A stretch of DNA of 63,251 nucleotides, the filler included, from Thraustochytrium aureum (lineage: Eukaryota): the NCBI GenBank assembly GCA_012862495.1. It is 5 parts of 4 records of this genome, joined end to end, with 100 filler letters (N's around TTAATTAATTAA, not from the genome) between each part and the next. Parts side by side here need not be neighbours in the genome. Positions count along the whole stretch, not along the records: positions 52,519 to 61,626 come from BLSG01000082.1; 4 more parts are not named here. One strand, 5' to 3'. A program made the position numbers and the translations under genes. How positions within the stretch are numbered: position 1 is the stretch's first letter; each line of letters opens with the position of its first letter. The notes under the pieces are model-generated. The model was not told the origin of the DNA, made no database searches, and was given only the letters and a program-made list of their open reading frames with translations. Shown here one piece after another: positions 21,445 to 61,682 of this stretch.

Positions 21445-21456
21445 TTAATTAATTAA
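21445..21456. other. Artificial scaffold linker TTAATTAATTAA flanked by Ns
   Basis: The identical 12-mer between N runs occurs four times and gives stops in all six frames. Confidence 0.97.
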
Positions 21457-37811: not shown

Positions 37812-39418
37812 GATCCTGACCCGCGTCGTAAGGTCGGCAGCGCCTTTCGTTCAGCCTTCCGACCTTGGGCTCGCCTGCTCGCTCCGTTGCCGCCGCCACA
37901 CAGACCGACCGTAGCGTTCGGTGTCTGCTGCGCCAGGAGTCTGTNNNNNNNNNNNNNNNNNNNNNNNNNNNNNNNNNNNNNNNNNNNNNNNNNNNNNNNN
38001 NNNNNNNNNNNNNNNNNNNNNNNNNNNNNNNNNNNNNNNNNNNNNNNNNNNNNNNNNNNNNNNNNNNNNNNNNNNNNNGCCTTCAGGGCCCCCCCAATCG
38101 CCCTCACGCCGTGCGGCCTTCGCTCAATTGTCCTCTCCCGCCAAGCGTGTTCGTGTGTACCGTGACCAGCGCGTTCTTCACAAACTTCACACGTCGTCAA
38201 GCAGCCTGAGGACGGGAGAAAAACATTCATACCAGTTTTTTCAAGATGAAGGTACTCTATGTGGTTGGTGGTGTTAGAATCTGCGCTAGTTTTTTGATTG
38301 AACTTCATCACTTTGTTGGAGGAAAATCAAGCAAATGAACATGTTCAGACTGCCAGTGTAAGAGCTGGACATCCGCGGACCTGCTAGGCCCACTGATGCC
38401 ATCAGTGGCTGCGTTGTGCGCAACGCGCGAAAGAAAACACCTCGCTTGCCATTCAGCTTGCCAGCTTCAAGTTGTTGCCAGTGACTCCATAGCGCGGAGG
38501 TGTGCAAAGCTCCGTTTCCTGTGGTGTTGACCTAGGTACACCACGGGTTGGGGGATTTCCTCTACAAGACCGGAGGTGCGACCTCGAAACGAAAGCTCAG
38601 AGTTGGCGCCAGCGGATCGAAGTTGCACATGGCGAACCGTGACCAAGCAACCTACCAGCTTGCCCGCGGCCTGCACTGCCTCAAACGCCGCCGGCGCAAC
38701 GCCAGAGCCGGTCGGTCGCACATGTCACATGCGCGTTCGGCAAAACTCGCGCTGGCGCATGTCCCACGCACTGAACCAGCGTCGCGAACTCCACGCGTGG
38801 ACATCCTCCCTCCACGTCGTCAAATCCAACGCGCAAGGCCGTCAACGGCACCGCAGTGCGACGTCCTGGCTGGAGCACCGCTGCGAGGGACGCGTCGCGT
38901 GCCCAGCGCGCCTCGAGAGCGCATGCATCGCGAGCAGGAGGACTCCACGAGGACATTGTCGCTCGCGTATTTTGTTGTTCATGCATTGGGGAGACGACAG
39001 CAGACCCCGAACCGAGGAGACGGCCAGTCTTTGCGCCAGCAGCAGCAGCAGTAGCGGAGCAGCGGCTGAGGAGAGTGCTCGCGTGCTTGCTTCCTGCGGC
39101 TGCGCTTCTGTTCTGTTCTGGCTGGCGGCGGTGTGACGTGCTTGCTTCTTGCGCCATTTGTTTGGGCCGCCCGTGACGACGACACCGGACTCCACGCGGA
39201 CTCCACGAGGCTTGCGCCAGCTGCTGCAGGAGTAGTAGTAGTAGCAGTGGCTGAGGCGCAGGAGGAGGCCCTGCGCTAGGTTTGCTGCGCTGACGGCCTG
39301 CGCGGCTGGCTCTGCGGAGTACAGGAGCCGCAGCTGCAGCTCAAGTCTCGCAGGCTTCGCATCCGACGGCCTGCTCAGGGCTCTCTGTTGATTGAGAAGA
39401 GCGTTGCGAGAACTGGCG

Positions 39419-42400
39419 ATGGACGAGTCTGTCGGCGACCTGACGGCGCTGCCCGAGGTGACCGAGGCGGGGATCGTGGATGCGCTCGAGCAGAGGTTTG
39501 GGAAAGCGAGGATATACACGGGACTTGGCCCCTCAGTTATCGTCAAGGTTAACCCCTTCGCGGACGTGGGCACCGCGGGCGAAGATGGGCCACACGTTGC
39601 GCGGCTGGCCCGCGCCGCGCGCGAGCAGGCAATTGCGACGGGACGCAGCCAGTCGTGCATGATGACGGGCGAGAGCGGCGCGGGCAAGACGGAGGCGACC
39701 AAGGTGTACTTGAACGAGCTCGCTGGGTCCAGGTCGTGCTCGAACGAGTCCCTCCACGTCCAGCTGGTCGACTCGTGCACGCTCCTCGAGTCGTTCGGCA
39801 ACGCCGGCACGGAGCACAACCACAACTCGAGCCGCTTCGCGCGCTGGTTTGAGCTCGAAGTGGACCGCCGGTCCGGGAAAATCGTTAGCGGCACTGTGCA
39901 CCAGTACCTCCTTGAAAAGGCCCGCGTCGTCGCGAGCTCATCCGCGTCGTCCAACTTTCACGTCCTCTACGACGTATGCGCCAGCTTCGAGGGCCCTGCC
40001 GCGCAAGGGGCCGCCGAGGCCACCCTGGAGCAGCCGCAGGGCAGCTTTCGCTACCTTTCGAGCAGACCGGGCAAGGGCCGCATGGACAGGTGGCTGCGGA
40101 TGCAGTCGCAGCTCGCACGGCTCGGCGTCGCCGAGCAAGAGATTGATGGCGTAGAGCGCCTCCTATGGTGCGTGCTCCACCTCGGCAACATCGACTTCTC
40201 GAACAATGACGAGTCCGGCGACGCCGGGTGCCGCGCCACACCAGAGTCTGAGGTGTCGCTGGGCTTCGTCAGCGAGCTGCTCGGCGTGCAAGACCCGCAA
40301 AAGGTGGCTCGCTTGTTCTGCACGCGCGAGCTGCGCACGGGGCGCGACACGGTGACCCAGCAGCGGTCTGCAGCGCAGGCGGCCGACGCGCGCGACGCCC
40401 TGGCCAAGGACCTGTACAGCAGGCTGTTCCGCTGGGTGGTCGCTCGAATCAACCACTCCATCGCGGGTGGGGCCGGCCGCCTTCGCACTGAAAATAGCGT
40501 CTCGGTCGGCTTGCTCGACATTTTCGGCTTCGAGTGCTTCGAGACCAACTCGTTCGAGCAGCTCTGCATCAACTACTGCAACGAAAAGCTCGTGCAGCAA
40601 TTCCACGGCGTGCTCGTGGAGGCGGAGATTAACGTGTGCCGCGCTGAAGGCGTCCCAGCAGGCGAGATCGGGGTCGAGGGCGAGTATCAGCTCGAGCTCG
40701 CCCGCAAACAGGGCCTCCTGGACGAGATCGACCGCGCGTTCTCGCTCATTCAGGACGAGACGCGCCTGCCAAAGGCGACAGACGCAACGCTCACGAGCAA
40801 GCTGCGCAAGCTTGAGCTCGGCGGCGCGGGCGGAGCAAAGCCGCGCGCCAGCGCCGGCGAGGCCTTCACCATCTTGCACTACGCAGGGCCGGTTAGCTAT
40901 TCGACAGCCGGCTTCCTGGAAAAGAACAAGGACGAGGGGCCCAAGGACATCGAGAGCGTCTTGCTCGCGGAATCGCAGAGCGACTTCCTTCGCTCGCTCT
41001 TCGAGGAAGCTGGGGAGCCTTCGCCCCCCGCAAGCCCCGCTGCGCGGAGCGGCGCGGCGAGGAAGAAAAAGACGCTCGGGATGCAGTTTCGCGACGAGTT
41101 TTCCGACCTCGCGCGAGCTCTGTCCGAGAGCGACCAGCAGTTTGTCATGTGCGTCAAGCCCAACCGCGAGTCGCGCCCGGCGGACTTTCAGCGCGACGTG
41201 GTCCTTCGCCAGCTCGAGTGCAACGGGCTCCTTGCAGTCTGCAAGGTGCGCAAGAGCGCGTTCGCTGCCCACATGCCCTTTGAGGACTTTGCGGCGCAGT
41301 ATGGGCTGATCAGCGCTGCGGGGGGCCAGGCTTGCCAGGATTTGCGCGCGCGCGTCGAGGCGATGGTCGCCGACTTTGTGGACTCGCTGCTCTTCGAGGA
41401 GGGCGAGGCCTTTGTGGGCAAGTCTCGCGTGCTTCTTCGGGAAGCAGCCAAGGTTTCGCTCAATATCCGAATGCGGTTGGTGCTGCGCCGCGTGTCGAAG
41501 ATCCAAGCGGCGGTTCGCGCGTTCCTGGCCCGGCGCCGCTTTGCACGCGTAATTCGGGACACGATTCGCATCCAGTCGGCGGTCCGCGTCATGCGCGCAC
41601 TGCGTGAGGCGCGTCGCTTGCGCGAGTCGAACGCTTGCGCGTGCGTCATCCAGAGCGCCGTGCGCCGCTACATGGCGCGCGCGGAGCTTGCCGCTCGCAA
41701 GCGCGCTGCCGCCGCGGTGCGGGTACAGACTGCAGCGCGCTGCATGCTGGCCCGCCGTGCGTTTNNNNNNNNNNNNNNNNNNNNNNNNNNNNNNNNNNNN
41801 NNNNNNNNNNNNNNNNNNNNNNNNNNNNNNNNNNNNNNNNNNNNNNNNNNNNNNNNNNNNNNNNNNNNNNNNNNNNNNNNNNNNNNNNNNNNNNNNNNNN
41901 NNNNNNNNNNNNNNNNNNNNNNNNNNNNNNNNNNNNNNNNNNNNNNNNNNNNNNNNNNNNNNNNNNNNNNNNNNNNNNNNNNNNNNNNNNNNNNNNNNNN
42001 NNNNNNNNNNNNNNNNNNNNNNNNNNNNNNNNNNNNNNNNNNNNNNNNNNNNNNNNNNNNNNNNNNNNNNNNNNNNNNNNNNNNNNNNNNNNNNNNNNNN
42101 NNNNNNNNNNNNNNNNNNNNNNNNNNNNNNNNNNNNNNNNNNNNNNNNNNNNNNNNNNNNNNNNNNNNNNNNNNNNNNNNNNNNNNNNNNNNNNNNNNNN
42201 NNNNNNNNNNNNNNNNNNNNNNNNNNNNNNNNNNNNNNNNNNNNNNNNNNNNNNNNNNNNNNNNNNNNNNNNNNNNNNNNNNNNNNNNNNNNNNNNNNNN
42301 NNNNNNNNNNNNNNNNNNNNNNNNNNAGGAGCTCGGCTCGGAGAGCCTTCGCCCTCTGACACCTGAGCCGTCCAGTGCGCAAGCAAACGTCGCCGGGCCG

Positions 42401-42961
42401 GAGATGGAGTCGGCACCCTTCGCTGCCGCCGTCACCGTCCAACGCATGATTCGCGGGGCGCTTGCTCGTCGAGCCTTCTCTGCGACAGAGACGCAGAGGC
42501 GCATTCAAGTCCGACTGGCGAGGATCCGCGCTGCGCGAACTGCCCAGGCGAAATTGTTCAGCCAGGCCATGTACGCCCAGCGCAGCGCGGCGTTCCTGCG
42601 GGGCTTTGGCAAGACGGAGGAAGCGTACTACGAGGAGGTGGCTCGGCGCCGGCCAGAGCTCCAGTTTCTGCTGGTCGAGAACCATGGCGCTGTGCCGGAC
42701 GAGGGACCGCGCAAGTCGCACGAAGCCCGAATCGGCATCGTGCGCAAAGAGCTGGCTGCGGCGCTGGTGCGCAGAGACCTCAGGAGCATCTCGGACGCGC
42801 TACGCAGTTCGTACGAGGCCCAGTACCACGGGCCAGAGGTCGCCGAAGCAGAGGCGGTGCTGGCGCACATCCGCAAGGTGCACATCAAGCAGATGGAGGC
42901 AGAGGCCAAGCTCGCCGAGCGGTTCCGCATCGCGCTGCAGCCGCGCCACCCTGAAGCGTGA
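39419..42961 (+). CDS. Myosin heavy chain: compact divergent motor, multiple IQ motifs, short tail (gap 41765-42326)
   Basis: GESGAGKTE (P-loop), LESFGNA.T..N.NSSRF, YLLEK.RV, LLDIFGFE, NSFEQLCINYCNEKL, F.I.HYAG.V.Y, CVKPN, and IQ...R motifs. Confidence 0.95.
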   Translation: MDESVGDLTALPEVTEAGIVDALEQRFGKARIYTGLGPSVIVKVNPFADVGTAGEDGPHVARLARAAREQAIATGRSQSCMMTGESGAGKTEATKVYLNELAGSRSCSNESLHVQLVDSCTLLESFGNAGTEHNHNSSRFARWFELEVDRRSGKIVSGTVHQYLLEKARVVASSSASSNFHVLYDVCASFEGPAAQGAAEATLEQPQGSFRYLSSRPGKGRMDRWLRMQSQLARLGVAEQEIDGVERLLWCVLHLGNIDFSNNDESGDAGCRATPESEVSLGFVSELLGVQDPQKVARLFCTRELRTGRDTVTQQRSAAQAADARDALAKDLYSRLFRWVVARINHSIAGGAGRLRTENSVSVGLLDIFGFECFETNSFEQLCINYCNEKLVQQFHGVLVEAEINVCRAEGVPAGEIGVEGEYQLELARKQGLLDEIDRAFSLIQDETRLPKATDATLTSKLRKLELGGAGGAKPRASAGEAFTILHYAGPVSYSTAGFLEKNKDEGPKDIESVLLAESQSDFLRSLFEEAGEPSPPASPAARSGAARKKKTLGMQFRDEFSDLARALSESDQQFVMCVKPNRESRPADFQRDVVLRQLECNGLLAVCKVRKSAFAAHMPFEDFAAQYGLISAAGGQACQDLRARVEAMVADFVDSLLFEEGEAFVGKSRVLLREAAKVSLNIRMRLVLRRVSKIQAAVRAFLARRRFARVIRDTIRIQSAVRVMRALREARRLRESNACACVIQSAVRRYMARAELAARKRAAAAVRVQTAARCMLARRAFXXXXXXXXXXXXXXXXXXXXXXXXXXXXXXXXXXXXXXXXXXXXXXXXXXXXXXXXXXXXXXXXXXXXXXXXXXXXXXXXXXXXXXXXXXXXXXXXXXXXXXXXXXXXXXXXXXXXXXXXXXXXXXXXXXXXXXXXXXXXXXXXXXXXXXXXXXXXXXXXXXXXXXXXXXXXXXXXXXXXXXXXXXXXELGSESLRPLTPEPSSAQANVAGPEMESAPFAAAVTVQRMIRGALARRAFSATETQRRIQVRLARIRAARTAQAKLFSQAMYAQRSAAFLRGFGKTEEAYYEEVARRRPELQFLLVENHGAVPDEGPRKSHEARIGIVRKELAAALVRRDLRSISDALRSSYEAQYHGPEVAEAEAVLAHIRKVHIKQMEAEAKLAERFRIALQPRHPEA

Positions 42962-43022: not shown

Positions 43023-46000
43023 TCACGGCGTATCCACGGTGGCTTGTCGCACCGCCTTCCTGGGCCGGACGCGAATATGCCGCGCGCGCGTTCCGTCCTT
43101 GTTGGAAGCCGAATCTGACGTCGCAGGCGACTCTGCCGATTGCCTTGGCTGCAGCAAGGTTTCGGAGCGCCCGCCCAGGCCCGAGCTCTGCTGGGATTTG
43201 GCCGAGTGCGAAGGGGACGGGGACAGGGCAGGCGCATGCGGCCGCTGGTGTTGCCCAGGAGACAGCGGTGGCGCGACTGCCCGCCCGCCCAGGTCGCCCA
43301 AGGGCAGGGGTGGGCCGCTCCTGTCTTCGAACTGGTAGGTTTCCATGCTCGAGTCGACGGACGACTCGTGCCCGAGAATATCATCGACCCCCAACGCGCC
43401 ATCGCCGGCGGTCTCCAGGCCCCCGGGCTCGGCCTCGTCGCCAAAGACAGAATCGTCGCCGTCGTCGTCCTCGGCCAGAGCAGACGGCCACGAGAGCGCC
43501 TCATGGCACCCGCTGCAAACACGAACTGGCTTGTCAATGCCATACTTTGGAATCGGGACGCGGTTGGAGCTGCACGCGGCGCACACGAGCGAGGAGCAGT
43601 GGCGGCAGTGGTGGCGCCGTGTCGTGACCGAGAACCGCACGCCACAGGCCTGGCAATGGTCGACTTGCGCGTCCTCCACCCACGAGGGGGGGCGCCGGGA
43701 GCAGCTTGAGCATCGCATTGGCCAGGAGCGGGAGCGGCCAGTGCTCGCGCGCGAGCGAGAGCGGCGAGTCGCCCCGCATGTCGCGCGCATTCACGTCTGC
43801 GCCGCGGCGTACGAGGGCAGACACTGCGGCGATCTCGCCGTACCGCACGGCGCAGTGCAGCGGCGTGACGCCGTCCTTGGCGACAGCGCCCACTGTGCTT
43901 GCGCCTCCAGGGGCGCCAAGGAGAATCGCCAACACCTTGGAGGTGCTTCGCTGCCGCACGCGCTCGCGCGGGCCCGCGTCGCCTTGGAGACGCTGCGCGA
44001 GCAGGCCCATGTCAGCGGCGTGTTGCGCAGCGTCCACGGGCTTGCTCGCGCTGGGGAACACGTGGTCGCGCTGTCCGCCCAGCGCAAAGTGAAGCGGCAC
44101 GTAGCCGAGCTTGGTCGGGCTTGCCACCGAGGCGCCGGCGTCAAGCAGGGTCTCCATGACCTTGAAGGCGCGGCGCAGCGTGTCGAGGGGCTGCGAGTCG
44201 CGCGCGATTACCTCGCAAGCGATGGCGGCAGCCCGGTGCAGCGGGGTCCGCCNNNNNNNNNNNNNNNNNNNNNNNNNNNNNNNNNNNNNNNNNNNNNNNN
44301 NNNNNNNNNNNNNNNNNNNNNNNNNNNNNNNNNNNNNNNNNNNNNNNNNNNNNNNNNNNNNNNNNNNNNNNNNNNNNNNNNNNNNNNNNNNNNNNNNNNN
44401 NNNNNNNNNNNNNNNNNNNNNNNNNNNNNNNNNNNNNNNNNNNNNNNNNNNNNNNNNNNNNNNNNNNNNNNNNNNNNNNNNNNNNNNNNNNNNNNNNNNN
44501 NNNNNNNNNNNNNNNNNNNNNNNNNNNNNNNNNNNNNNNNNNNNNNNNNNNNNNNNNNNNNNNNNNNNNNNNNNNNNNNNNNNNNNNNNNNNNNNNNNNN
44601 NNNNNNNNNNNNNNNNNNNNNNNNNNNNNNNNNNNNNNNNNNNNNNNNNNNNNNNNNNNNNNNNNNNNNNNNNNNNNNNNNNNNNNNNNNNNNNNNNNNN
44701 NNNNNNNGTGCCTTGCGTTGCCGAGCTTTGCAGCCAGGTTGAGCATGGGGTGTTGGTGGCCAACCGCGTCGCCATAAGCGCTGTGCTGCGACGCCGTGCT
44801 CTCGTTGCTCAATCGCTTTGACTTTCTCCGGCTGGCCCTGTCGCGGCTGCCGCCCATGATGAGCGTCTCTACGATCTGGTCCAGCTCCTCTGGCGTGGCC
44901 CAGTCGACGGCGAAGGGTATCTTGACAGGGCGGTTCGCGCTTGCGCCCTTGCCCTGCTTGGTGGTCTGCCGCGGCGAGCCCGCGCGCTCGCCCTCCTCGT
45001 CGCTGGGCTCGTCGCCGTCTTCGGCGCCGCTGCGGCCGCCTCCTGCCGCGACCGAGTCTCTAGCAGGAACCACGTCCTGCTGGCTGTGCATCGTTTCGCT
45101 CGAGAAGGCGGCCGGGCGAAATCGGCCCGTGGCGGCGCGCCGTTGCTTGCCCGCCGCAAGGGCGACCTCCACCGGCAGTGCGCCAGAGGCTGCCGGCGCA
45201 TCCGGGTCCACCCCTCGCGCGAGCAGGTCGACCACAATGTCGGCCCTGCCAGACAGCACGGCAAGCTCCATGGAGTTGTCGTCTTCGACGGCAATGGCCA
45301 GCAAGACATCCGAGCACACCGACGCGAGGCAGGTCTCGGGTCGGTCCATGAAGCTGTCGTCTTCCTCCTCGTCGTCCGCGCCGAACGTATCGACAGGGTC
45401 GTGGAGAGCTTTGAGCAGGTACGGCATGGCCTTGCCGTCCTGCGCAAGCGCGCTCCGCTTGAGCAGGTCGATGCAGGACCTCGCGAGCTCTGGGTCGGCG
45501 CAGCCGTCGGTCGGGTGCATTCTCAGAGCAAACTGCAGCACGGCTAGCGTCATTGAAAACCATCGCGCGCTCGCGGCGCGTCCGCCGCTGCCGCTGCAGC
45601 TGGTCGCGGTCACGGTATCGCGCAGCGCGTGGCTCGCGACGCGTTCGAGCCGCGGGATCCGAAAGGTTTTGGCTGCTCGGTGCACGCTGGCGACGAATTG
45701 CAGCCGCCGCAGGTCGTCCACGGGGCCGAGCTCCACGCTGTCCGTGTATAGGAACCGCACCAGGGCCGCCATCACGGCAAAGTCGCTGACGAGGTCGGAG
45801 GTCACCTCGTGCCTCCCAGCCCACTGGCCGCCGGGGAGCAGCCTGGCCCGCAGCACCGGCGACCGCANNNNNNNNNNNNNNNNNNNNNNNNNNNNNNNNN
45901 NNNNNNNNNNNNNNNNNNNNNNNNNNNNNNNNNNNNNNNNNNNNNNNNNNNNNNNNNNNNNNNNNNNNNNNNNNNNNNNNNNNNNNNNNNNNNNNNNNNN

Positions 46001-49418: not shown

Positions 49419-52299
49419 GACGCCGGCGAGCAGTCGAGCATCTTCTCGATGCTGGCCGGCGTGCTCTGCGCCGGCAACATCACCTTCAAGGACAAGGAGC
49501 AGTCCTCGGGCCTCACAGGGTCAGAGGTGGCTACCCCCAAATGGCTCGAACAGGCGGCCGCGCACTGGGGCCTCGACACCATGATGATGGGCGAGCTCAT
49601 CACCTCGCGCACCGTGTCGGCGGCTGGCGAGACGAGCGCTGTCGTCCTGGACGCGGCCAAGGCCAAGGACGCGGTCGACGCGCTCTGCAAGGCGGTCTAC
49701 GGCCGTTTGTTCCAGACGCTCGTCTCTGAGGTCAACGAGAGCATGGCGCCCCCCTCGAGCGACTACTTTATCGGGCTGCTCGACATTTTTGGCTTTGAGA
49801 TTCTCGAGAGCAACTCGTTCGAGCAGCTCTGCATCAACTACTGCAACGAGAAGCTCCAGCACTACCACAACCAGCACACCTTCGACGCGGAGGAGGCCTT
49901 TTACAAGTCCGAGGGAGTCGAGTACCACTTCCTCAAGCCGCGCGACAACCAGGCCGTGCTGGACCTGATCGAGGCCAAGCCCAAGGGCCTGCTGATCACG
50001 CTCGACGACGAGGGCGCCCTCCCCGGCGGCTCGGACAAGGGCTGGCTCGGCAAGGCGGAGAAGGACCACGGCGCCAACGCGCTGTTTGGGTCCGACTTTC
50101 GGGAAAAGTTCAACTCGACGCTCACCTTCCAAGTCGTGCACTACGCCGGCGAGGTCCGCTACAACGCGACCGGGTTCGTGGCCAAGAACAAGGACACCAT
50201 GTGGGCCTCGCTCTACGAGCTGCTCTCCAGCTCCACCGAGCCCACCATGCAGCGCATGTTCCCCGTGGGCAAGTACGTCAGCAAGACCAAGCCCGTGGCG
50301 GCTCAGTTCCGCACCAACGTGGGCGACCTGCTTGGCCTGATCAAGTCGACGCAGACGCGCTTCATCCGCTGCATCAAGCCCAATGCGCTCATGCGGCCCA
50401 AGGACTTTGACGCGCCGCTCATCGTGGACCAGCTCAACAACAGCGGCGTGTACGAGACGATTGAGATCCGCAAGACGGGCTTTCCCTTCCGCCTGACCCA
50501 CAAGCAGTTCGCGTTCCAGTTCTCCTGCATCAACATCCGCCACCGCTACCCGAGCGAGTACGCGGAGAAGGGCGACTGGCGCAACCTGTGCGCCGAGATC
50601 CTCAACGCAAACCCGCGTCTGCAGGAGCTCGCAGAGGACATCCGCATCGGAACCTCGATGGTGCTGTACCGCGTCTCGGTGCACAAGCCGCTCACGCTGC
50701 TGCGCAACCTCGCGATCGAGATCACGCTGCCGCGCGTGCAGGCCTTCATCCGCGGCGCCATCGGGCGCCACTACATGAACCAGCTGCGCACCGCCGAGGT
50801 GCGGCTGCGCACCGCGCTCGAGACCGCCAACGACATCGCCATGGTGCGCGAGGGCTTTGAGCTTGCAGAGAGCTGCAAGGCCTGGCTCGAGCCCAACCTT
50901 GCCTTTCTCCCCCGCGTACCCGATGGTCAACTACAACAAGGGCAAGCACTTGGAGGGCCGCCTCATGGCCTGGGAGGACCTCCAGGCCGAGATGGAGCGC
51001 CACGCCGACGGCAAGTCTCCCGAGGACGTTGACGTCACCCTCTACAAAGCCCTCATCGACATGTGCAAGCGCGCAGACACCGAGCTCAGCGACGTGACGC
51101 GCACCGCGGCGCAGCAAGAGCTGTACGAATTTTGCCAGGAGCTCATCTCCGACTCTCCGCCCGGCCGCCTGGACGCCGAGGCCGGCCCCGCGCTCCTCTC
51201 GCTCGACCGCGCGCGCATGCAGGCCGCCAAGGACAAGTCGGACGAGCTCGGCTACCCGACCGAGACGGTGGACAAGATTGCATTCATTCTCGAGCGGCTC
51301 GTTTTCGTGGACGAAGAGTCCAAGGCCAGCCTCGACGTGCTCGACGGTGCGCGCATGAAGGCCTGCCTCGACGAGGCCAACCTCTACAAGCACACCAACG
51401 CGAGCTTGGAGGAGATCCAGCGCATGTTTGCCATGCCAGAGAAGGAGTTTGTCAAGCTCGAGCTCGAGGCGGCCAAGCGCCTGGGCGACAAGCCCCGCGA
51501 GACGCACCGCCGCATCCGCCTCAAGGAGATCCATTACGACGAGGAGGGCCACAAGTACGAGGACACCTGGGGCTCGGGCCACGCTCGCGACCCGATGGAC
51601 TTTGCTCGCGCCGCGGGGCTCAAGCTCTGCGGCCGCTCCGCGATCGCGCAGGGGATGCAGTCCTGGACCGACAAGCCGCTCCCCGCCCCGCTCAGTCTCA
51701 TGCCAGGCGAGGTCAAGGGCCGCGAGGTCACCAAGGAGATGAAAAAGCAGATGGCGCTCTGCAAGAAGCAATTCAAGAACTTGCGTGTGTACATGAGCGA
51801 CATCAAGGCCTCGGAGAAGAACCGCGACAAGGCCGGCCAGGCCTTCGTCAAGTTTGGCTGGGACACGCCCGAGCTCCGCAACGAGCTTTTCCTGCAGTGC
51901 ATCAAGCAGGTGACCAACAACCCCGAGCCGGCATCTGTCGAGTCTGGTTACGAGATGCTCAGCCTCCTGATGGCCTCGTTTTTGCCGTCCGCGGGCTTCG
52001 AGGACTACCTCGTCATGTTCGTGCGCCGCAACCCGCCGCCTTCGGGCGACTACAAGCCGCTCACTGCGGCCTTGCACCAGCTTCAGTTCGACGCCGAGGC
52101 TTCCAAGAAGCCGAAGGCGCTCGCGCAGCTCCGCAAGGACATCAAGGCGCTCGCGGAGGATGGCTCGCGCTTTTCCATCGCGCCGGGCGCCTTTACTGGC
52201 CCGACGAACCGCGTTTTGCCCAAGGCGGTGCCGCCGAGCCCGCTTGACGGCGCGAAGGCCAAGGCTGGGTCGGACGCCCCCCAAGAGAGCGCCCACTGA
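49419..52299 (+). CDS. Myosin with motor, single IQ, helical tail and C-terminal MyTH4 domain (5' part in gap 48548-49418; frameshift near 50905)
   Basis: LLDIFGFE, NSFEQLCINYCNEKLQ, HYAGEV.Y, FIRCIKPN, VQAFIRG. The MyTH4 motif G...PELRNELFLQCIKQVTNNP...GYEMLSL...F.PS..FEDYL is in ORF 50857..52299; removing one T at GCCTTTCTCC joins the frames. Confidence 0.93.
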
Positions 52300-52462: not shown

Positions 52463-52474
52463 TTAATTAATTAA
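52463..52474. other. Artificial scaffold linker TTAATTAATTAA
   Basis: Same 12-mer between N runs. Confidence 0.97.
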
Positions 52475-52518: not shown

Positions 52519-54441
52519 GCCAAATCCGAGAAACCGGGCAAGGCTCGCCCGGCCCCGCCAGGCAGGTTGGTGGTCGAGGCAAGCCCTGAGAACAACCAAG
52601 AGGACGGCCAAGGCGAGCAAGACGGCCCTGAGAGCGAGCAAGCGGAGAGCGAGGGAGACGAGGACGTCATCGAGAGCGCCGGGGACGTCAGCCAAGACGG
52701 GCCGGACAGCTCGCAAGTCCAGGAGGGCGCTGAGGTTGCGCCGATCCACATCTCGCTCAAGGACGTAGAGCACGACTTTTCCGGCCTCGTGGAGCGCTCG
52801 CGCACAATCCTGGCAAAGCCGGGAGTCAACTTTTTCTATCTTCAGCTCCTCAATGGCGGGTTTCTGACCATGACCAAGGGCTGGATCTGCAATGTCCGTG
52901 ACATGGCCAACGTGCTCGAGCGCACGCTCTTTGTGTGCACCGACCAAGAAGCTTTCGACGGGCTCAGCGAGTTTGCCCGGACTGAGGGCTTGCAGCTCAA
53001 CCTGTACCTCCAAGTTTACGAGACCCCCAAGGTGCTCCGCTACGGCCAGCTGACCTACTACTTTTTCATGCTCTTCCGCGCCTCGATGCTTCACACGATG
53101 GTGGAGAACCGGCTCAGCTTGCTTCTGACCGAGGCGGACGCCACGTGGTTCCAGGACCTCACTGGCTACCTGGAGAAGACCATCGAGGCCTCGACGGACA
53201 TGGTCACCGTGAACGACGACCTCCGCAAAAAGACGTCGCTCAACGGCGGCTTCCTCTGGCTGCGGCCCACCGAGACAACGCGCAAGGTGGTCGGGAGCTT
53301 GTACAAGACGCTGAACGACCGGCTGAAGCAACTGGAGAGCACGGGGAAATCGTACGTGGGCCAGAGCGGCAACGAGCAGTTCATGTTTGAGGCCATCATC
53401 AAGCGCATGAACGAGGACCCGAACCAAAAGTCAGTCAACATCGTGTACCTCAACACCGAGCTCTTCGCGCCCGGCCAGTGGTACCGGTCCAAGTACGCGA
53501 AGCGCGGCCTCTCCCCGTACGTGGTGCTCAACAACTGGCTCCGCGGCCAGGCCGGCAAGATCAAGCGGGCCAAACAGTGGGGCCACTGGTTCCTCAACAA
53601 CGACGATGCCACGTGCAAGAAGAGGAACCTCCCCGCCGTCTTTTCGGCCGCGGACCTCGCGGTCGACTCTCTGCGCGACTGGAGCCCCCTGCTCGACGTT
53701 GCGCTGAGCTTTCCTAGCAAGGACCTTGTCCTCATGCTCGTCAGCGCAGAGAATGTGCAGGTTGCTCTGAGTTGGGCATGCAGCGTGAAGGGCCTTGGCA
53801 ACGTGCTGGACAAGACCCTCTTCGTGTGCACTGATGCGGAAGCCTGCGGTGCGATGAGCGGGTTTTCGGCGTTGCCGATCAAGCTCTTCCAGGACCCGGC
53901 ACCTCTCCCCGCCGACCCAGTTTACTACAAGCTCGCAATCGTGCAGCTCCTGCTCGCGCGCGGCAAGTCTGTGCTCGTTACCAAGCCGGCCGCGACCTGG
54001 TCTGCCGACCCGTTCGAGTACATTCTCTCGCACGCCATGGCCAGCGCCGACATTGTGACCCTGGAGAACAGCCAGAGCAACCCGCGCCTTGTGGACACCG
54101 CGTTTGCCCTGTTCCGCCCGACCGTGGATACGTTCAAGGTGACGAGTCGCGCTGTCCTCGTGGTGCAAAAGTCCATCGTTACGCTCAAGAAGGCGCCGGC
54201 TGAAGCTGCCGCGTTTGAGATTGGCATCCAGGACACCGACTTCGATGCCTCCGGCGAACCGGTTGAGCTTGCGCAACTCGCGCTCCCGACGCTGTCAGCG
54301 ACCAAGAGCCCAGACGGCGTGGGGGAGCCCGACCTGAAGGGCTTGCCGGTAGCGCTGTGGAACAAGATGAACGGCGAGGTCGGCGCCAAGGCGGTGGGGC
54401 TGTGGCGGCTCGGCGACGATCGCTCGTCTTGCGCTGCATAG
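52519..54441 (+). CDS. Nucleotide-diphospho-sugar transferase (GT77-like) with two tandem domains; 5' truncated
   Basis: Domain 1: MT..WICN, TLFVCTD, YG...Y, LLLTEADATWFQD, LNGGFLWLRPT, NEQ, F.PG.WY, NNWL.G..GKIKRAK.WGHWF. Domain 2 repeats WACSV..VLDKTLFVCTD and FALFRPT. Confidence 0.85.
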   Translation, partial: AKSEKPGKARPAPPGRLVVEASPENNQEDGQGEQDGPESEQAESEGDEDVIESAGDVSQDGPDSSQVQEGAEVAPIHISLKDVEHDFSGLVERSRTILAKPGVNFFYLQLLNGGFLTMTKGWICNVRDMANVLERTLFVCTDQEAFDGLSEFARTEGLQLNLYLQVYETPKVLRYGQLTYYFFMLFRASMLHTMVENRLSLLLTEADATWFQDLTGYLEKTIEASTDMVTVNDDLRKKTSLNGGFLWLRPTETTRKVVGSLYKTLNDRLKQLESTGKSYVGQSGNEQFMFEAIIKRMNEDPNQKSVNIVYLNTELFAPGQWYRSKYAKRGLSPYVVLNNWLRGQAGKIKRAKQWGHWFLNNDDATCKKRNLPAVFSAADLAVDSLRDWSPLLDVALSFPSKDLVLMLVSAENVQVALSWACSVKGLGNVLDKTLFVCTDAEACGAMSGFSALPIKLFQDPAPLPADPVYYKLAIVQLLLARGKSVLVTKPAATWSADPFEYILSHAMASADIVTLENSQSNPRLVDTAFALFRPTVDTFKVTSRAVLVVQKSIVTLKKAPAEAAAFEIGIQDTDFDASGEPVELAQLALPTLSATKSPDGVGEPDLKGLPVALWNKMNGEVGAKAVGLWRLGDDRSSCAA

Positions 54442-54580
54442 CCTTGCGGCGCTCGCCTTGCCCAAGTGCAGAACCGGCACGCCAGCCAGCCGTCCTGCGG
54501 CGGCGCAATGCAGAAAACAAAACGAACCAACGTTGACACTTTAGTTGAACTAGCTAGTTGCGCAGAGCCCTCTGGCGGCC

Positions 54581-57500
54581 CTAAGAGGGAAGGGCAGCGG
54601 GTCCGCGGCCTTGGCGGCGTTGGTCCGTGTACATCGGGTTGGAGCACTCGAGAAACTCCTCCTCTTGGCCCTCACCCGCCCCGCCGAGGCTCTTCGAAAA
54701 GCAGATCAAGTCGACACCTGGCCTTGCGAAGCTGTCCTCCTCAAAGCCAAGCGCGCGGTGGAACTCGACGGGGACGGCGTACCCGCGCGGAATCATAACG
54801 CGTACGAACTGGCACTCCCTGCCTCGCGCAAGCGCAAAAACTTGCCGTACAGACGGCGGCCGATGCCCTGGCGCCGCGCCTGCGGCAACACTGCGCAGGC
54901 CGCAACGAGCCCGATCGAGCATGGGCGCGGGCCGCCGTTCTGCAGCTTGCCACAGAGATAGCCGTCGATTTCGCCGTCCGAGTTGCGCGACACAATCGCA
55001 AACTCGCAGGTGTCGTCCCAGAGTTTGCGCGTGTGCTCCGGGATCCAGTGCGGGGTCGCGTTCGGGTCTGGCTTGCCCTGCGNNNNNNNNNNNNNNNNNN
55101 NNNNNNNNNNNNNNNNNNNNNNNNNNNNNNNNNNNNNNNNNNNNNNNNNNNNNNNNNNNNNNNNNNNNNNNNNNNNNNNNNNNNNNNNNNNNNNNNNNNN
55201 NNNNNNNNNNNNNNNNNNNNNNNNNNNNNNNNNNNNNNNNNNNNNNNNNNNNNNNNNNNNNNNNNNNNNNNNNNNNNNNNNNNNNNNNNNNNNNNNNNNN
55301 NNNNNNNAGGCTTACGCCGAAGTGGACGCGGTTGACAGACTTGCGCCGCTTGGAAAAGACCGACTTGAGGATTCCCTTCTTCGCGTGCGACCCCGACGAC
55401 TCGTTGCTGGCCACCGTGGACACGGAGGGGCGCGCGGAGATGGAGGGGCGGAAATGATTGGCGTGGCCAGCGGCGTGCCCGCTTCCATTCGAGCCGTAGC
55501 GGCCGCGCGAGTTCGCTGGCTCTCTCAAGTCTGAACCCGGGGCGGTCGAGGCGCTGGCCGTTCTTTGGCTGGGGCCCGGCTCGTGGGCGTGGCTGGTGTC
55601 GGCCTCGCCGTGTTTGCCTTGCAGCTCGTCGATCTTGTACTGGACGCGATAAATCCACTGCATGCGCAACTCATCGCTGAAGGTCGCAAAGGTGAATTCG
55701 CGAGGGTCGGCTCGCGAGCGGCCCTTTTTCTCCCAGGCCGTCGTGTAGATGGTGAAGCAGAACAACGTGTCGGAGACCTGGTGCACGCTCTCGATAGAGA
55801 GAGTCCCCGCCGGCTCTTTGCGGATCTGGGACTTGCTGTTTAGCTTGACCACTTCCAAGCGCTTCTCGTTGCCCTCCTCGTACGTCTGGACGATCTCGCT
55901 CGCCCTGATGTCTAGCGTGCACCAGCGCGGTTTCCAGGGCTTTTGCGGGTTGCGCGAGTTTTCCTTCTTTACGAATAGATGACCCGAGTGGTTGAGCATG
56001 AGCGCCTCCCCGGCCCGGCTCAGGTACTCGTTCATCGTCTCCGCGTCTTGCTTGGCAATCTCCTCGTTCTTGCGCTTGTTGAGCTTGAGCTTTTGCTTGT
56101 TGGTCATCCGCTTGCGAAGCACCTCCACCATCCACCCGCTCTCAAAGGTATACTCTACTCTGTCCGCAGGGCGCTTGCGCAACTCGCTGCCGTGGGACTT
56201 GCACTTGATAATAAAGTTGGACTTGACCAGCTCGTCGAAATCGGTGTCCACGCTCTCGGTGGGAATTGCGAGCGGGAAAATGGCCTTGATCGTGCGCAGG
56301 GTGAACACCTCGCCGATGATGGCAGCCACCTTGATGATGAGCTGCTGGGTAAGCGACATTTTGTCGATGATGGAGCCCACCATGCTCTCCATGGAAAGCG
56401 GAATGGGCAGGTCGTGCCGTTTTCGGCGTTCCTCAAACTCGTTCGAGGGGAAGAAGAGCTCCGGCCCGGGCGAAGTGCGCTTGGCGATCAAGCCCGCGTC
56501 CAGAAACGTCCGAACGGCGTCCGAGACGTAGAGGGGGTTGCCCTTTGTCTTGCGCCGCAGGAAGGCGACGAGCTCGTCGGGGACGCGGTCGACGTTTGCA
56601 AAATTGCAAATGATATCCTTCGTGTCGGCTGTCGACGGGTGGAGCTCAAGGTAGGTGACGACTGAGCTCGCCTTCATCGCCTCGTGCACCAGAATGCTGG
56701 TCTCGACATCGTCGAACTGCGAGACGCCGCCCTTGAGCTGCGACTTGAGAAGCGAGGTGGACTTGTGCGCGGGGCGGAAGACCGAGACGCGGTTGCTTCC
56801 CCCGCTCGCAGCCCCTCCCACGTTGTCGATGACGCGGCGCTCGATGCGGATCAGGCGGTGGAGGAGAATGATGAGAATGCTAGACCTGGTCCAGTTCTCG
56901 GCGAGCTCCTGGAACACGAGCCAGGAGAAGGTGTCCATGTAGTGGCTCTCGTCCACGACGAGCACGACNNNNNNNNNNNNNNNNNNNNNNNNNNNNNNNN
57001 NNNNNNNNNNNNNNNNNNNNNNNNNNNNNNNNNNNNNNNNNNNNNNNNNNNNNNNNNNNNNNNNNNNNNNNNNNNNNNNNNNNNNNNNNNNNNNNNNNNN
57101 NNNNNNNNNNNNNNNNNNNNNNNNNNNNNNNNNNNNNNNNNNNNNNNNNNNNNNNNNNNNNNNNNNNNNNNNNNNNNNNNNNNNNNNNNNNNNNCCCTCG
57201 GCATACCATCAAACAGGTTCTCGCTGCTTACTCCGAACATGGAGGTCAGGTTCTTCACGCGGCTCACTTTGCTGCCCGCAGCAGGGGTCTGGCCGAGGCT
57301 CGTCGCAGGGGTCGCAGACCGCAAACCGTCTGCGGAGGCGCCCACCACATTCTTCGACTTTGCGATCTTGCGTGTCTTCTTCGTGGCCTTTTTGGCGACG
57401 TCCGGGCCTGGGGGCTGCGGCGGGGCGGCGTCGGCCCCGCCGAGGCCGTCGCTCGGCTCTTCGAACTGCGTCATCAGGATCTTGTTGAGCTTGTAGAGGT

Positions 57501-60111
57501 CGTCAACGGAGAGGTTTCTGTCTGCCCGCGCCCCGTGCGCGCTCGCTGCGGCGAGGGGTGCGGCGGCGGCGACGGCCTCGCGCAGCTGCTCCTCTTTCGA
57601 AGCGCTTGACTCGGGCGTCGATCCCTGGGTTTCCAGGTCGGATTCTGGCGAGATGCTGAGAAGGGAATTGATCGGGTGCTCCCAGATCGCAAAGGGGCGC
57701 GCGTTGCGCCCAGTCTCGAAGGGGTTTCCCCGCCCGTAGCCAAGGAGCACCTCTTCGTCGAGGCTCTCGGTCTCGCTGAGCAGAAAGGACTCGACGAGGC
57801 GCGACTTGCCTACGCCGTGGTCGCCGTCCAAGAGGACGGTTTTGCCCCCCTTCCCTGACGCGACCTCGTCATACGCTCGAGCCAGGCAGTCGCGCACGTA
57901 CGCAGCCGAGCGGAGCTCTTGGTCGGCTTGGTCGGCGGCGTCAGGCGCGTAGCCTCGCGGTGTGCTGTACTGCACGAGAAGCAGGTTTATCCGGCCGAGG
58001 CTCCAATCGTGCGCGATCGTGTTGAGGAGCTGCGAGGGCCGGAGAGTGACGCGCTCCGCGCCGCGCATCCACACGAGCTCGAAGAGGGAGTAGTCCTCTC
58101 CGGCCTCTTTGGTGACCAAGCCCTTGCTGACGGCCTTGGCGAGGACGACTTTGAGCATGTCGTGCACTTCCTGACTGACTCCTCGAGAGACGCGGTGACG
58201 CTGGTCTTTTGCTCGTCGACAGAGGGCCCGTGGCGGCCGCTCTGCGTCACCGCGCGAGGAAAGAAGGTGAAGACCACCAGTTTGCTGGCCTCCCGCGAGG
58301 CAGACCTCCGCGAGGCCGACTTGCGCGAGGCCGACTTGCGCGATCCGTTGGCGAGGAAGCTGGACGTGGCGGCTACAAGCTTGAGATCGTGGCTTTCCGC
58401 CACAGCCGCGCCGCTGCTCTCGCTGCTCGTGCTCGCCACCGGGGTGCGCCCCCGTCGAGCATCAGCGCGGCGGCCCAAGAAGCCGACGCTGTTCATCGCC
58501 TGGACCTGGCGCTCCTCAATGCGCTTCATGTCGTTGGGGTTGGAGACGACAAGCTTTGTGCCGCGGCGGCGCGTCTTCTGGCGGTACTTTGGCGACTGCG
58601 AGTTGAGAATCCGGCCGTTCTTCTTGGAGATGCTCGTCAAGTGCGACTGGTGCATGCTGTGTGGGTCGGAGCTGGTGCCTATTGCCGCGATTTGGTAGCA
58701 CTGCACGGGCTCGCGCTTGCCCTTGACGGCGATTGTGATGGGAATGAACTCGAACACGGTGTTTTCCGCGCCGGTCTTGGTGGAGCGGTCCATGAGGAAA
58801 TTGGACGACAGTGTCTTCGCGGTGCCCATGAGGCGCGCGGCGAGGTTGACGGTGTCCCCAATGACAGAGTACTCGCGGCGGTTGCCCGCGGCGTGGCCGA
58901 TGATCCCGCAGAAGGCGAGGCCCGTCGAGATGCCTACCGAGCCTTTCAGCCGGTACTTGCCAAGCATCCAGAGGATCTTGAGCGCTGAGAGGATGCCGCG
59001 CAGCGGGTCGTCCTCGTGCGCGATGGGTGGGAGCCCGAAGACGGCGATCAGGGTCGAGCCCTTGCGTCGAGAGGCACTTGTTGATCGTGCCCTCGTAGCC
59101 CAGGAGGATGCCCTGGATCTCGTAGAACACCTGCTCTAACTTTTGCGAGTTTTGGCCCGTGCCGAGCTCCTCCGCGTCGAGGCCAAGGTCGACGAAGAGG
59201 GTCGACACGATACGCAGCTCGGGGGCCCAAAACTCGTCGTTGGTCTGCACAAGGTACGGCATGACCGCGTTGGGGACGTACTTCCAGAGCTTGCGCTCCG
59301 TTTCGTTGTTGCTGGGCACGGTGCGGTCGAAGGTCCGCCATGGCACGCGGTCCGAGGCCTTGAAGGACCTCACCGTGACCGTCTTGGCGTTAGATTTGAC
59401 CGGAGCGAAGGGAACAAAGTGCTCGCCGACCATGTCCCAGATTGCGCGGCTCACGACCACCTCGCCCTTTTTGGCCATTTTTTCGCTTTCGATGGCCTCC
59501 ATGAGCGCGGGCCCAAGCGCGACGTACTCGAACCTCTCGCGCTGGATTTGGTCTGCGTTGCCCCCGAGGTACATGATGTGGAGCAGGCCAATGCCAAGTC
59601 CTAGTTTGGCCTCCAGCTCGCCCGAAGCGATCCCGCCAGATTCCTTCTTGGGGTTTGACGGAACAGTGACGATGTCCTCGTACTCGCTGTCCTTGGCGTA
59701 GACGGAAAATTTGAAGCCTTTGAGCTGCTCCTGGATGTCTACCGCGCACTGCACTGCGCGCTGCACGCGCAGCTCGTAGTCGCGCGGGTCGTTCGGGTCT
59801 ACCTCGGGCCACAGCGCGAGCATGGCGTCGCCGGCGAACTTGAGCACGTCTCCGCCGGCCCGCGTCGTCAGCTTGACCAGCTGGGTCACGAACTTGTTCA
59901 AGTTGGTTGAGAGGTCCTCTAGCCCGTTGGGGCCCAGCTCGCAGAGCGTCTCTGTCAAGCTAGTAAACCCTGCCACGTCTGCGAACAGGCACACGGTCTG
60001 CAAGGTGCTTGCATCCGGCTTGGAGGTCCCGTTCGGCTGTCGTTTGCTCTCTGCGACGGCCTTGGCCACCACGGCCGGCAAGTACAGCTGGAGGCTCTGA
60101 AAGTCTCTCAT
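54581..60111 (-). CDS. Soluble adenylyl cyclase (ADCY10/sAC-type, two class III cyclase domains) + RA-like + STAND P-loop ATPase + PH + probable C-terminal GNAT; several frameshifts and two gaps
   Basis: C1: FADVAGFT, VLKFAGDA. C2: FVDL, GTINK..(V)DDKG..FGLPP.AHEDDP.R, GISTG.AFCG, RREYSVIGDTVNLAARLM. Walker A GDHGVGKS, Walker B VVDESHYMD, GNPLY. PH: GHLFVK..WKPRW..F.F...ELRMQWI. Frameshifts near 59065, 58175 and 54838. Confidence 0.88.
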
Positions 60112-60442
60112 CGCTCACAGCGGCAGGGCGGCGTCCACGCCGTCGTATCGCCACTCGCAGCGCGCACGGCCCGCGCGGTGGAGGTCGCGCCGCAGTGCAC
60201 GGACCGCCCCGCAGGCGAGCCAGCCGAAGGGCCGGCCAGTCAGCGCGCAAGCCCGCAATCACGCAAGCAAGCAGGGCGCGATCGAGAGCTCAACGTGCCC
60301 GCCCGCGCGCCCGCCCGCCCGCCTGCCAGCCCGTGCCAGCCGCTGCTCGGGTCTGCCCGCTTCCAGCGCGAGCCCGCGAAGCTCGCAAATGCAGCCCTGC
60401 TCCTTCTGGTCGCCCGCGAAAGCAGGCCCAAACGCCACTTCA

Positions 60443-60536
60443 AATCGCGCAATAATCGCGCAATAATCGCCCATAATCGCCCATAATCGCTCAATAATCG
60501 TCCAATAATCGACCGATAATCGACCAATAATCGACC
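60443..60536. repeat. Nine-copy 10-11 bp tandem array (CAATAATCGNN) upstream of the cyclase gene
   Basis: AATCG starts at 60443, 60454, 60465, 60475, 60485, 60496, 60507, 60518 and 60529. Confidence 0.92.
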
Positions 60537-61070
60537 GCGACGTCCCTCTGAGTGCCCGGCCGCCCTCCAGTATGGATTGTGAGGAGAACCACCTCCCCCT
60601 CCTGCAAAGCGCGTGCCTTTGCGCGCCGTGCACAACTGCGAAGAGAGGCAAAAACGCGGCGCGCTCTCGCACTCGCGCCCTCGCGCTGTCCCCTCACACC
60701 CTCTCCCTCTCCCAGTTCGTTCCCCTCCCTATGTCCAGCGTCAAGTTCTCGCCTTCGAGTTCTCCCTCTCTTGAAAGCGTGTGTGTGAGTGCGTGAGCGC
60801 CTGCCTCTTTTCCAGTTCAGAAAGGCTTTCTTCGTTTCCTTCCTGCCTCCTCAATTCGAGTGGCCGCCGCCATTTTGTGGCGTGAGGAGCTGACCGAGTG
60901 GAGGACTGCGGGCGCTCAGCGCGGGACCAAGCGGTGTCTGCTGCCGCGGAGAATGCGCCGCACATGCGCGAAGGGGCTATCCAGCGGCAGCGCAGCCCGG
61001 CGAAACAGGCTCCAGTTCGCGCCTCTGGGGCGCCGCGCATGTTGCGCCGGCGCGGCTCGCGAGCCCGTGA

Positions 61071-61108
61071 CGGACGGACGGATGGACGGACGGACGGACG
61101 GACGGACG
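61071..61108. repeat. (GGAC)n tetranucleotide microsatellite; related (GGCA)/(GGCT)/(GCCT)n runs at ~1251-1279, 23486-23510, 25836-25855, 26392-26416
   Basis: Directly visible tetranucleotide runs in intergenic DNA. Confidence 0.9.
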
Positions 61109-61670
61109 CCAGCCCGATCGCGCGTGCCGGAGAAGCCGATGCCGCGCGTGAGGGCCGCCAGCCTGCGACGAGGCGCCTTGCGCTTGTGCCCGTGCAAGTT
61201 GCCGCTTGCACGGGTACGCCGTCCACCGGCACGAACACATTTGGATGATTGCTTGGAGCGATCTTGATCAAGAGCGACACGTTCAGCGCGCGGGCGCTGA
61301 CTGGTCGAGTCTGAGGGAGTCGCTGCCAGTGGGCGACGCTTCCTCCTGCAACTTGCTCGTTCAGGTGAAAGAGGCGGAGCGAGCTCCTCGCTGGCTGGCG
61401 CATCGGAAATAGGCATCGGCTGTCCCAACTCGACGCTCTGCAGTGCGAGCTGATCGCCTGGCAAAACTGCGACTGCCCCGACAAACAAGTCAGCACAGCT
61501 CCGGCCACACGCCTGCCCCACCATCACCCACCTGCAGAGCAGGCACGCGGGCAAGGAACGCGCTAGCAGTCCCCGAACGCAAGCGCGAGCGCAAGGCAAC
61601 GAGTCACCGAGCTCAAGGAAAGCTGCNNNNNNNNNNNNNNNNNNNNNNNNNNNNNNNNNNNNNNNNNNNN

Positions 61671-61682
61671 TTAATTAATTAA
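61671..61682. other. Artificial scaffold linker TTAATTAATTAA
   Basis: Same 12-mer between N runs. Confidence 0.97.

Follow-up and report, generated by a model that had tools for sequence, protein, structure and literature searches.

Class III cyclase-STAND proteins, the kind that includes human soluble adenylyl cyclase (sAC, ADCY10) and bacterial cyclase-STAND-TPR proteins, usually sense their input through C-terminal repeats. Ras binding is described for another cyclase, fungal Cyr1; passages of PMC12002173 state that Cyr1 binds Ras and that vertebrate PHLPP does not. We examined a window of 63,251 nucleotides of Thraustochytrium aureum DNA (assembly GCA_012862495.1), the window being the whole stretch analysed, which joins five parts of four genome records. 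One minus-strand gene in the part from BLSG01000082.1 (positions 52,519 to 61,626) encodes a cyclase-STAND protein with an insert of ~105 amino acids between its cyclase core and its ATPase. A first-pass annotation had read this insert as a Ras-association (RA)-like domain that brings the cyclase under small-GTPase control. By its domain sequence the protein belongs with the sAC-type cyclase-STAND proteins and is not a Cyr1, and for the insert, predicted to be ubiquitin-like, we tentatively favor the role of an intrinsic regulatory module that docks at the hinge between cyclase and ATPase over that of a Ras effector domain. A literature search of titles and abstract openings, with subscription journals mostly uncovered, found no description of this architecture, and the main text and four supplement files of PMC12221091 mention neither adenylate cyclase nor Ras.

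A conserved insert with a predicted ubiquitin-like fold

The insert lies where the first-pass annotation had put it, between cyclase domain C2 (NLAAR motif at 58847) and the Walker A motif of the ATPase (57825), and ends about 20 residues ahead of the ATPase. The minus strand encodes both halves of the peptide quoted there, one at 58283-58170 and the other, in a second frame, at 58167-57967. A profile built from 10 ortholog inserts, run over 996 six-frame pieces, picked out the window's own frame at E 6e-6; the runner-up had E 2.6. With a profile from the four closest inserts, the C-terminal half of the window insert reached E 3.5e-14 and the N-terminal half (beta-1/beta-2) only E 0.31. Across 14 inserts a core is kept, comprising Thr30 (13/14), an acidic residue at 33 (13/14), and Ala6 (12/14). 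Position 62 in beta-3, the strand that reads F-E-L-V-W in the window, is aromatic in 12 of the 14 and Trp in 7, and in 9 of the 14 the helix starts with Thr-x-x-Asp-hydrophobic-Lys/Arg, which may be a ubiquitin-type start.

The fold was predicted for orthologs P0005 and P0134, not for the window's own broken sequence. AlphaFold2 on the 10-insert alignment gave a beta-grasp of two strands, a helix, and three strands (predicted local distance difference test [pLDDT] 84.6, predicted template modeling score 0.78), so the fold on which the first-pass reading depended is predicted for the ortholog segment. A separate alignment of three Aplanochytrium-type inserts yielded the same topology (pLDDT 67), and sequence profiles barely connect these two insert groups that fold alike.

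Some insert profile comparisons ran against the profiles' own members and are circular, while leave-one-group-out profiles recovered the thraustochytrid-type and P0006/P0034 inserts (E 2e-12 to 7e-3). Two results count against a single homologous insert: the leave-one-group-out profiles missed the inserts of P0008/P0009, P0042, and P0036 (E 0.35-4.8), and HHalign gave 96% and 82% for two groups with 0.25-8% for the others. We read the weakly matching inserts as homologous on the basis of position, pattern, an independent match to P0134 (E 6e-5), and the second fold.

Database searches returned little beyond the family. A profile search of 1.84 billion representatives found seven proteins, five of them family members or fragments and two repeat-rich, none annotated RA. 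PDB sequence searches with the insert gave chance-level matches only, and an Atlas search with the insert of Hondaea gave no usable match. A query joining the C-terminal half of the insert to the ATPase start matched 0 of 3,196 candidates, which is a weak test, as a C1 query later found intact orthologs. The conserved insert is real and is invisible to Pfam.

Candidate roles of the insert

In the model that we favor, C1-C2 would make cAMP, the STAND ATPase would switch the cyclase as in other cyclase-STAND proteins, and the PH domain would bring the protein to phosphoinositide membranes; the insert itself, as a built-in docking module, would pack against the cyclase or the ATPase, within its own chain or oligomer, and so tune the ATPase switch. 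We ranked this intramolecular role first, with the RA domain of PHLPP as precedent. Passages of PMC12002173 propose that the PHLPP domain was retained for intramolecular contacts after Ras binding was lost, its Ras-facing surface being the most divergent.

Structural neighbors were then compared. With the Hondaea model, Foldseek placed the Get5 UBL first, followed by the RA domains of NORE1A, RalGDS, and RGL1 (E 5e-4 to 1e-3 in all; 6e-4 to 1e-3 for the RA domains). VIA-align, covering 48,161 chains, put the plexin D1 RBD in the top row (Z 10.7, root-mean-square deviation [rmsd] 2.3, 89 aligned), with talin F0F1 (Z 10.2), a bacterial Ubl (10.1), the PI3K ABD (10.0), RalGDS RA (10.0, rmsd 2.8, 87 aligned), and Dsk2 UBL (9.8) close behind. 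A second look gave the same tie, again led by the plexin D1 RBD and with RGL1 RA at Z 10.6 (rmsd 2.6, 84 aligned). RA rows in these Hondaea-model comparisons were tied within 1 Z with non-RA beta-grasp domains. For the Aplanochytrium-type model, SUMO (Z 10.3), kindlin (10.2), and ISG15 led, and RalGDS RA stood at 8.9, about 1.4 Z below the top. The predicted fold is ubiquitin-like, and structure gives no clear preference for RA.

In the first-pass view, the insert would be an RA/RBD that has diverged, making the enzyme a convergent counterpart of fungal Cyr1: Ras-GTP or Rap-GTP would pair with beta-2 of the insert and, with the PH domain at the membrane, recruit and activate the cyclase. We placed this second and consider it unlikely. 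The NORE1A, RalGDS, and RGL1 rows and the PH domain on the same chain are in its favor, but the structural likeness is shared with non-RA folds, and the profile search above brought up no protein annotated RA. Pfam RA (PF00788) and RBD (PF02196) matched none of the inserts in sets of 1, 10, and 14 at E up to 10, with HMMER filters discarding most matches above about 0.1. The motif that had been aligned by eye also came apart. Its (V/Q)EV element does not exist, being an artifact of joining two frames at 58167; DY.L.E is out of register, as DYSL aligns to the loop before beta-3; and the Trp of AHDWSL is not kept in orthologs.

Residues on the putative Ras-facing surface point both ways. According to passages of PMC8163975, the effector beta-2 in solved RA/RB complexes pairs with Ras switch I, chiefly through main-chain contacts, and among RA/RB domains only R/K59 and K/R84 (CRAF numbering) are conserved. 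The beta-2 strand of 10 of the 14 inserts is net acidic, those of all four closest orthologs among them, which speaks against Ras pairing; basic residues are absent from alignment column 18 and occur at column 19 in 2 of the 14. Also unfavorable, the beta-1 strand of the window has Val and Thr at two positions that are basic, by eye, in close orthologs. In favor of Ras, a Lys in the window's beta-2 presumably sits where Raf RBD has a key Arg. With the fold tied, Pfam RA silent, and beta-2 mostly acidic, the step from an RA-like fold to Ras control receives no support.

Several observations nevertheless weigh against an intramolecular role. RA domains fill five of the top seven Foldseek rows for the Hondaea model, and RA/RBD-type alignments span 84-91 residues versus 74-79 for ubiquitin-type modifiers. 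Helix position 41 or 45 is Lys or Arg in all 14 inserts (the window has both), and beta-1 position 7 or 9 is basic in 7 of the 14. Mapped by eye onto CRAF and ubiquitin, these helix-end and beta-1 residues may correspond to the conserved pair of RA/RB hotspots, which is also a point for Ras or Rap. The argument from low beta-2 conservation is weakened because true RA/RB beta-2 strands vary, their contacts being main-chain (passages of PMC8163975). Moreover, the contact of the insert with the ATPase or cyclase is one that we infer by analogy.

A Ras partner would have to be present in the lineage. Stramenopile Ras proteins with a canonical effector loop, which suit the Ras reading, were found in oomycetes, Platysulcus, and Triparma, and the loop occurs in 40 of 40 aligned Ras rows, these rows being chosen by likeness to a query that was itself found via that motif. 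Against this, no labyrinthulomycete-named Ras was seen among the 120 listed matches of the Ras search, where names are incomplete and 12 Ras clusters were looked up. Separately, Ras-like GTPases whose effector loop is canonical are encoded in two giant-virus bins (L002:392-925 and L003:335-943, both on the minus strand). The full proposal that labyrinthulomycetes independently invented Ras-controlled cAMP synthesis, by grafting a cryptic RA domain between sAC core and STAND ATPase to form a coincidence switch of Ras/Rap-GTP and PH-phosphoinositide binding, with an acetyltransferase fused on, is slightly more doubtful. Binding of a small GTPase of any kind is possible and ranks above binding of Ras or Rap in particular, though we would sooner expect none.

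Sequence conservation bears on what sort of partner the insert would have. Identity among the four close orthologs is 37% in the insert versus 69-73% in the cyclase, 59% in PH, and 56% in GNAT. No other folded domain of these proteins is as poorly conserved, and a co-evolving partner fits this better than a near-invariant one. Within the insert, beta-2 is the least conserved element (0.16-0.28). The helix and beta-3/beta-4 region of the close orthologs is better kept (0.42-0.55 versus 0.28 for beta-2), and this, with the Trp at position 62, would suit an insert with a separate protein as its partner in trans, whether a Rho/Rac-type GTPase bound as plexin RBDs bind theirs, a PB1 partner, or machinery of the ubiquitin system. 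The plexin D1 RBD headed both VIA-align looks, other plexin RBDs reached Z 9.1-10.0, and a PB1 domain came second in the structure search of the Aplanochytrium-type model. All such rows are tied within 1 Z unit, however; the likeness to the plexin GTPase-binding surface is putative; and none of the 14 inserts matched Pfam PB1, UBX, or plexin RBD at E up to 10. We regard a trans partner of this sort as improbable and ranked it third, after Ras or Rap.

An insert-PH partnership like that of Ste11-Ste5 was rejected, since P0033, P0129, and P0134 have the insert without PH and the oomycete proteins have PH without the insert.

Relatives and history of the insert

To place the protein among its relatives, we used its C1 piece as a query, which matched 172 homologs; the best 120 were listed and analyzed. 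The closest relatives, including GBG33991.1 of Hondaea fermentalgiana, carry cyclase, AAA_16, PH, and GNAT in one chain of ~1,580-1,730 amino acids, and shorter relatives labeled Aplanochytrium minuta and A. stocchinoi stop after the ATPase region. The insert is kept by labyrinthulomycete orthologs of both genera. The C2 motif N-x-x-A-R is present in 114 of the 120 listed homologs. Its distance to Walker A is 341 amino acids in the window and 241-371 in 11 insert-bearing homologs, versus 136-175 in 29 of 29 oomycete-type homologs, which therefore have no insert; in 64 other homologs it is 87-213.

A maximum-likelihood tree of the cyclase region was built from 43 homologs and, for the window, its C1 piece only. 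It joins the window and the 11 insert-bearing homologs in one clade (96/89), sets the window within a five-row group that includes Hondaea (100/100), and unites the oomycete proteins and the window in a eukaryotic clade of 31 rows (100/100). Outside the insert clade and beside the oomycetes stands P0042, which has a weakly similar segment (HHalign score 20.7, where 30 random windows of P0042 reached no more than 14.0). With P0042 so placed, the insert may have been gained in one clade or lost from the oomycetes.

That all 11 homologs of the supported clade retain the insert, those without PH and GNAT included, argues against its being a decaying, functionless passenger, as do the conserved core residues and the predicted fold shared by two divergent subgroups. 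Insert identity does equal that of the flanking linker (37% versus 39%), and oomycete-type relatives manage without an insert, yet we judge decay very improbable. In our ranking it falls below the intramolecular role, Ras or Rap binding, and another trans partner, in that order, and above only a real split of the gene, considered below.

Other relatives show different domain additions. The oomycete-type proteins P0010-P0041, together with P0052, have a FYVE finger within the ATPase region and a PH domain, with neither insert nor GNAT; FYVE plus PH is a second membrane-targeting solution on this chassis. In the Aplanochytrium-type proteins P0033, P0129, and P0134 the chain includes the insert and stops after the ATPase region; the Walker A Lys is replaced by Arg, so that their ATPase may be inactive. 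In P0048, P0060, P0063, P0065, and P0098 the cyclase-STAND core bears RCC1-like repeats, with PAS as well in P0098. In this RCC1-like clade Gln stands at the K334 position and Ala at that of T405, which hints at another substrate specificity.

Gene model and frame breaks

We then examined whether cyclase and ATPase belong to one gene (Table 1). Contigs from four public runs (X1-X4) were aligned to positions 54400-61600. The restored open reading frame (ORF) has 5,385 nucleotides (1,794 codons and the stop codon), and its six native pieces are colinear with orthologs P0125, P0005, and P0003. The two N gaps are bridged by 236 and 65 letters in run contigs with the reading frame kept, as judged from the counts only.

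Table 1. Features of the cyclase gene in the T. aureum window
Feature	Position	Strand	Description and basis
Whole gene	54581..60111	-	One ORF of ~1,794 amino acids after filling four missing bases and two N gaps per public contigs
Cyclase domain C1	59437..59997	-	D47, K95, D99 equivalents; Ile at R176 position; human sAC E 5e-14
Cyclase domain C2	58683..59220	-	K334, N412, R416 equivalents; Ser at T405; human sAC E 1e-8
Frame break 1, two single missing bases	59064..59070		Likely assembly errors; run contigs
Linker, C2 to insert	58284..58682	-	~130 amino acids; second half low complexity; 39% identity among four close orthologs
Beta-grasp (ubiquitin-like) insert	57967..58283	-	~105 amino acids; fold predicted from orthologs
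Frame break 2, one missing base within the insert	58167..58168		Likely assembly error; run contigs
STAND-type ATPase (AAA_16)	56100..57912	-	E 8.8e-7; Walker A 57825-57802, Walker B 56956
PH domain	55619..55987	-	E 2e-5, above Pfam cut-off; basic beta1-beta2 loop
GNAT acetyltransferase domain	54690..55040	-	E 7.6e-6; in frame across second N gap; missing base near 54835

The frameshift that the first-pass annotation had put near 58175 proved to be a single break, its exact site being a base missing between 58167 and 58168; two further sites, at 59064-59070 (two bases) and near 54835 (one base), had gone unremarked. Extra bases behind 59064 and 59069 are present in all four runs, from two studies. 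Behind 58167 the extra base is found in the contigs of three of the four runs, all from one study (X1, X2, and X4, whose RNA nature is only guessed), and makes the junction S-V-R-N-V-H-D-M. The remaining run, the DNA-type X3, has a contig that stops exactly at 58167 without bridging it. Near 54835 the extra base is in two of the four runs, and an X1 contig of 3,320 nucleotides reaches from C1 past the first N gap.

All four supplied bases restore the frame, and since the runs supply them in frame and the six pieces lie in order along intact orthologs, the breaks are very likely assembly errors. A real frameshift in the sequenced strain, leaving a pseudogene or cyclase and ATPase as separate genes, is the least probable of the explanations that we considered, and we regard it as extremely unlikely. 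It could draw on the halt of X3 at 58167 and on scattered substitutions between runs and window (e.g., 22 over ~2,900 nucleotides in X1), which suggest other strains or alleles and leave a strain-specific null allele at these breaks conceivable. Opposed to it, besides the supplied bases, are the intact state of every catalytic residue tested and a nearby myosin that likewise seems divided between frames.

Cyclase domains and the bicarbonate position

Both class III cyclase domains are closest, among solved structures, to those of human sAC. The tandem C1-C2 unit has the metal-binding Asp pair, the substrate Lys, and the catalytic Asn and Arg, as had been claimed at first pass, and we infer that it produces cAMP. 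Alignment to human sAC also bore out the Ile read by eye at the position of Arg176. Its interpretation as a sign of regulation linked to the insert was rejected, the residue change being family-wide and independent of the insert: named insert-less oomycete proteins carry Phe wherever this column is filled, and the column holds Arg in 8, Phe in 41, Thr in 37, and Ile in 4 among the 120 listed of 172 homologs.

Mammal-type bicarbonate-activated sAC has a K95 and R176 pair, of which only K95 is kept here. Given the Ile, mammal-type bicarbonate activation appears unlikely on sequence grounds. Passages of PMC12867704 report that non-mammalian sACs are mostly without K95 or R176, and that two of them, when assayed, responded to pH and not to bicarbonate. 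Direct pH control is a plausible alternative input.

ATPase and acetyltransferase domains

The STAND P-loop ATPase lies in one polypeptide with the cyclase. Its region spans the N gap at 56969-57194, and its tail is likely helical, with a putative winged helix. The chain is closed by a GNAT domain that was absent from the first-pass account, in the region 54581-55080 on the minus strand, with motif A intact. Seven of the 120 listed homologs also have GNAT, and among solved structures its nearest relatives are N-terminal acetyltransferases and Bacillus subtilis YqjY. This fusion of cyclase and acetyltransferase is perhaps as interesting as the insert.

Other genes in the window

In the myosin gene mentioned above (49422-52299, plus strand), the head and the MyTH4 tail occupy different frames that overlap near 50780-51030, likely from a missing-base error. 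A second myosin, with IQ motifs, occupies 39392-42958 (plus strand), and a FYVE-finger ORF lies at 43026-43790 on the opposite strand to it. Positions 3764-37117 hold ordinary eukaryotic genes, including eIF3a, MORN repeat, SYF1-like HAT repeat, histone deacetylase, and tyrosine phosphatase genes, and also an exonuclease/endonuclease/phosphatase-family ORF with a SHIP-type C2 match nearby. An ORF of 807 amino acids at 26947-29367 (minus strand) had no Pfam match. Scaffold joins are marked by a 12-base TTAATTAATTAA spacer with a 44-N run on either side, at 52463-52474 and 61671-61682, and the same N pattern occurs near 21450 and 37166, so genes on either side of these marks need not be true neighbors.

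Comparison with known systems

The protein shares with human ADCY10 and bacterial class III cyclase-STAND-TPR proteins the tandem C1-C2, the equivalents of D47, K95, D99, K334, N412, and R416, and the AAA_16 domain that follows. It differs from both in its beta-grasp insert before the ATPase, from the bacterial proteins in having PH and GNAT where these carry TPR repeats, and from ADCY10 in having Ile, not R176. With the oomycete cyclase-AAA_16-FYVE-PH proteins (Phytophthora, Pythium, Albugo, and Thraustotheca) it has in common a tree clade, the C1-C2-ATPase-PH frame, and a hydrophobic residue at R176, whereas those proteins are without insert and GNAT and have FYVE inside the ATPase region. 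In this clade eukaryotic modules have replaced the usual C-terminal repeats (PH first, followed by GNAT in one branch and by FYVE in a second), and a beta-grasp that profiles do not see has been added. As a short foldable domain in harmless, culturable thraustochytrids, the insert offers a way to probe the poorly understood non-catalytic region of sAC.

In fold, RA/RBD domains (RalGDS, RGL1, NORE1A, and PLC-epsilon), plexin RBD, and talin F0/F1 resemble the insert as predicted, at ~95 amino acids, Z 9-10.7, and with a basic helix end. They differ from it at 9-24% identity, with no profile match, and the insert has a mostly acidic beta-2 and the aromatic residue at 62.

The likeness to Cyr1 is a beta-grasp domain in a class III cyclase, and that to PHLPP is a beta-grasp beside PH. 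No LRR or PP2C domain was found in the window pieces or orthologs, and the protein has two cyclase domains, whereas Cyr1 has a single cyclase domain with LRR and PP2C domains. Passages of PMC12002173 trace the Cyr1 RA to the LRR-PP2C/PHLPP lineage, gained in opisthokonts, which agrees with the separate origin proposed at first pass. If the insert does not bind Ras, it would be a further case of an RA-like fold without Ras binding. If it does, it would provide a second, independent link from Ras to cAMP outside fungi, and the protein would be a functional twin of yeast Cyr1 on an unrelated chassis.

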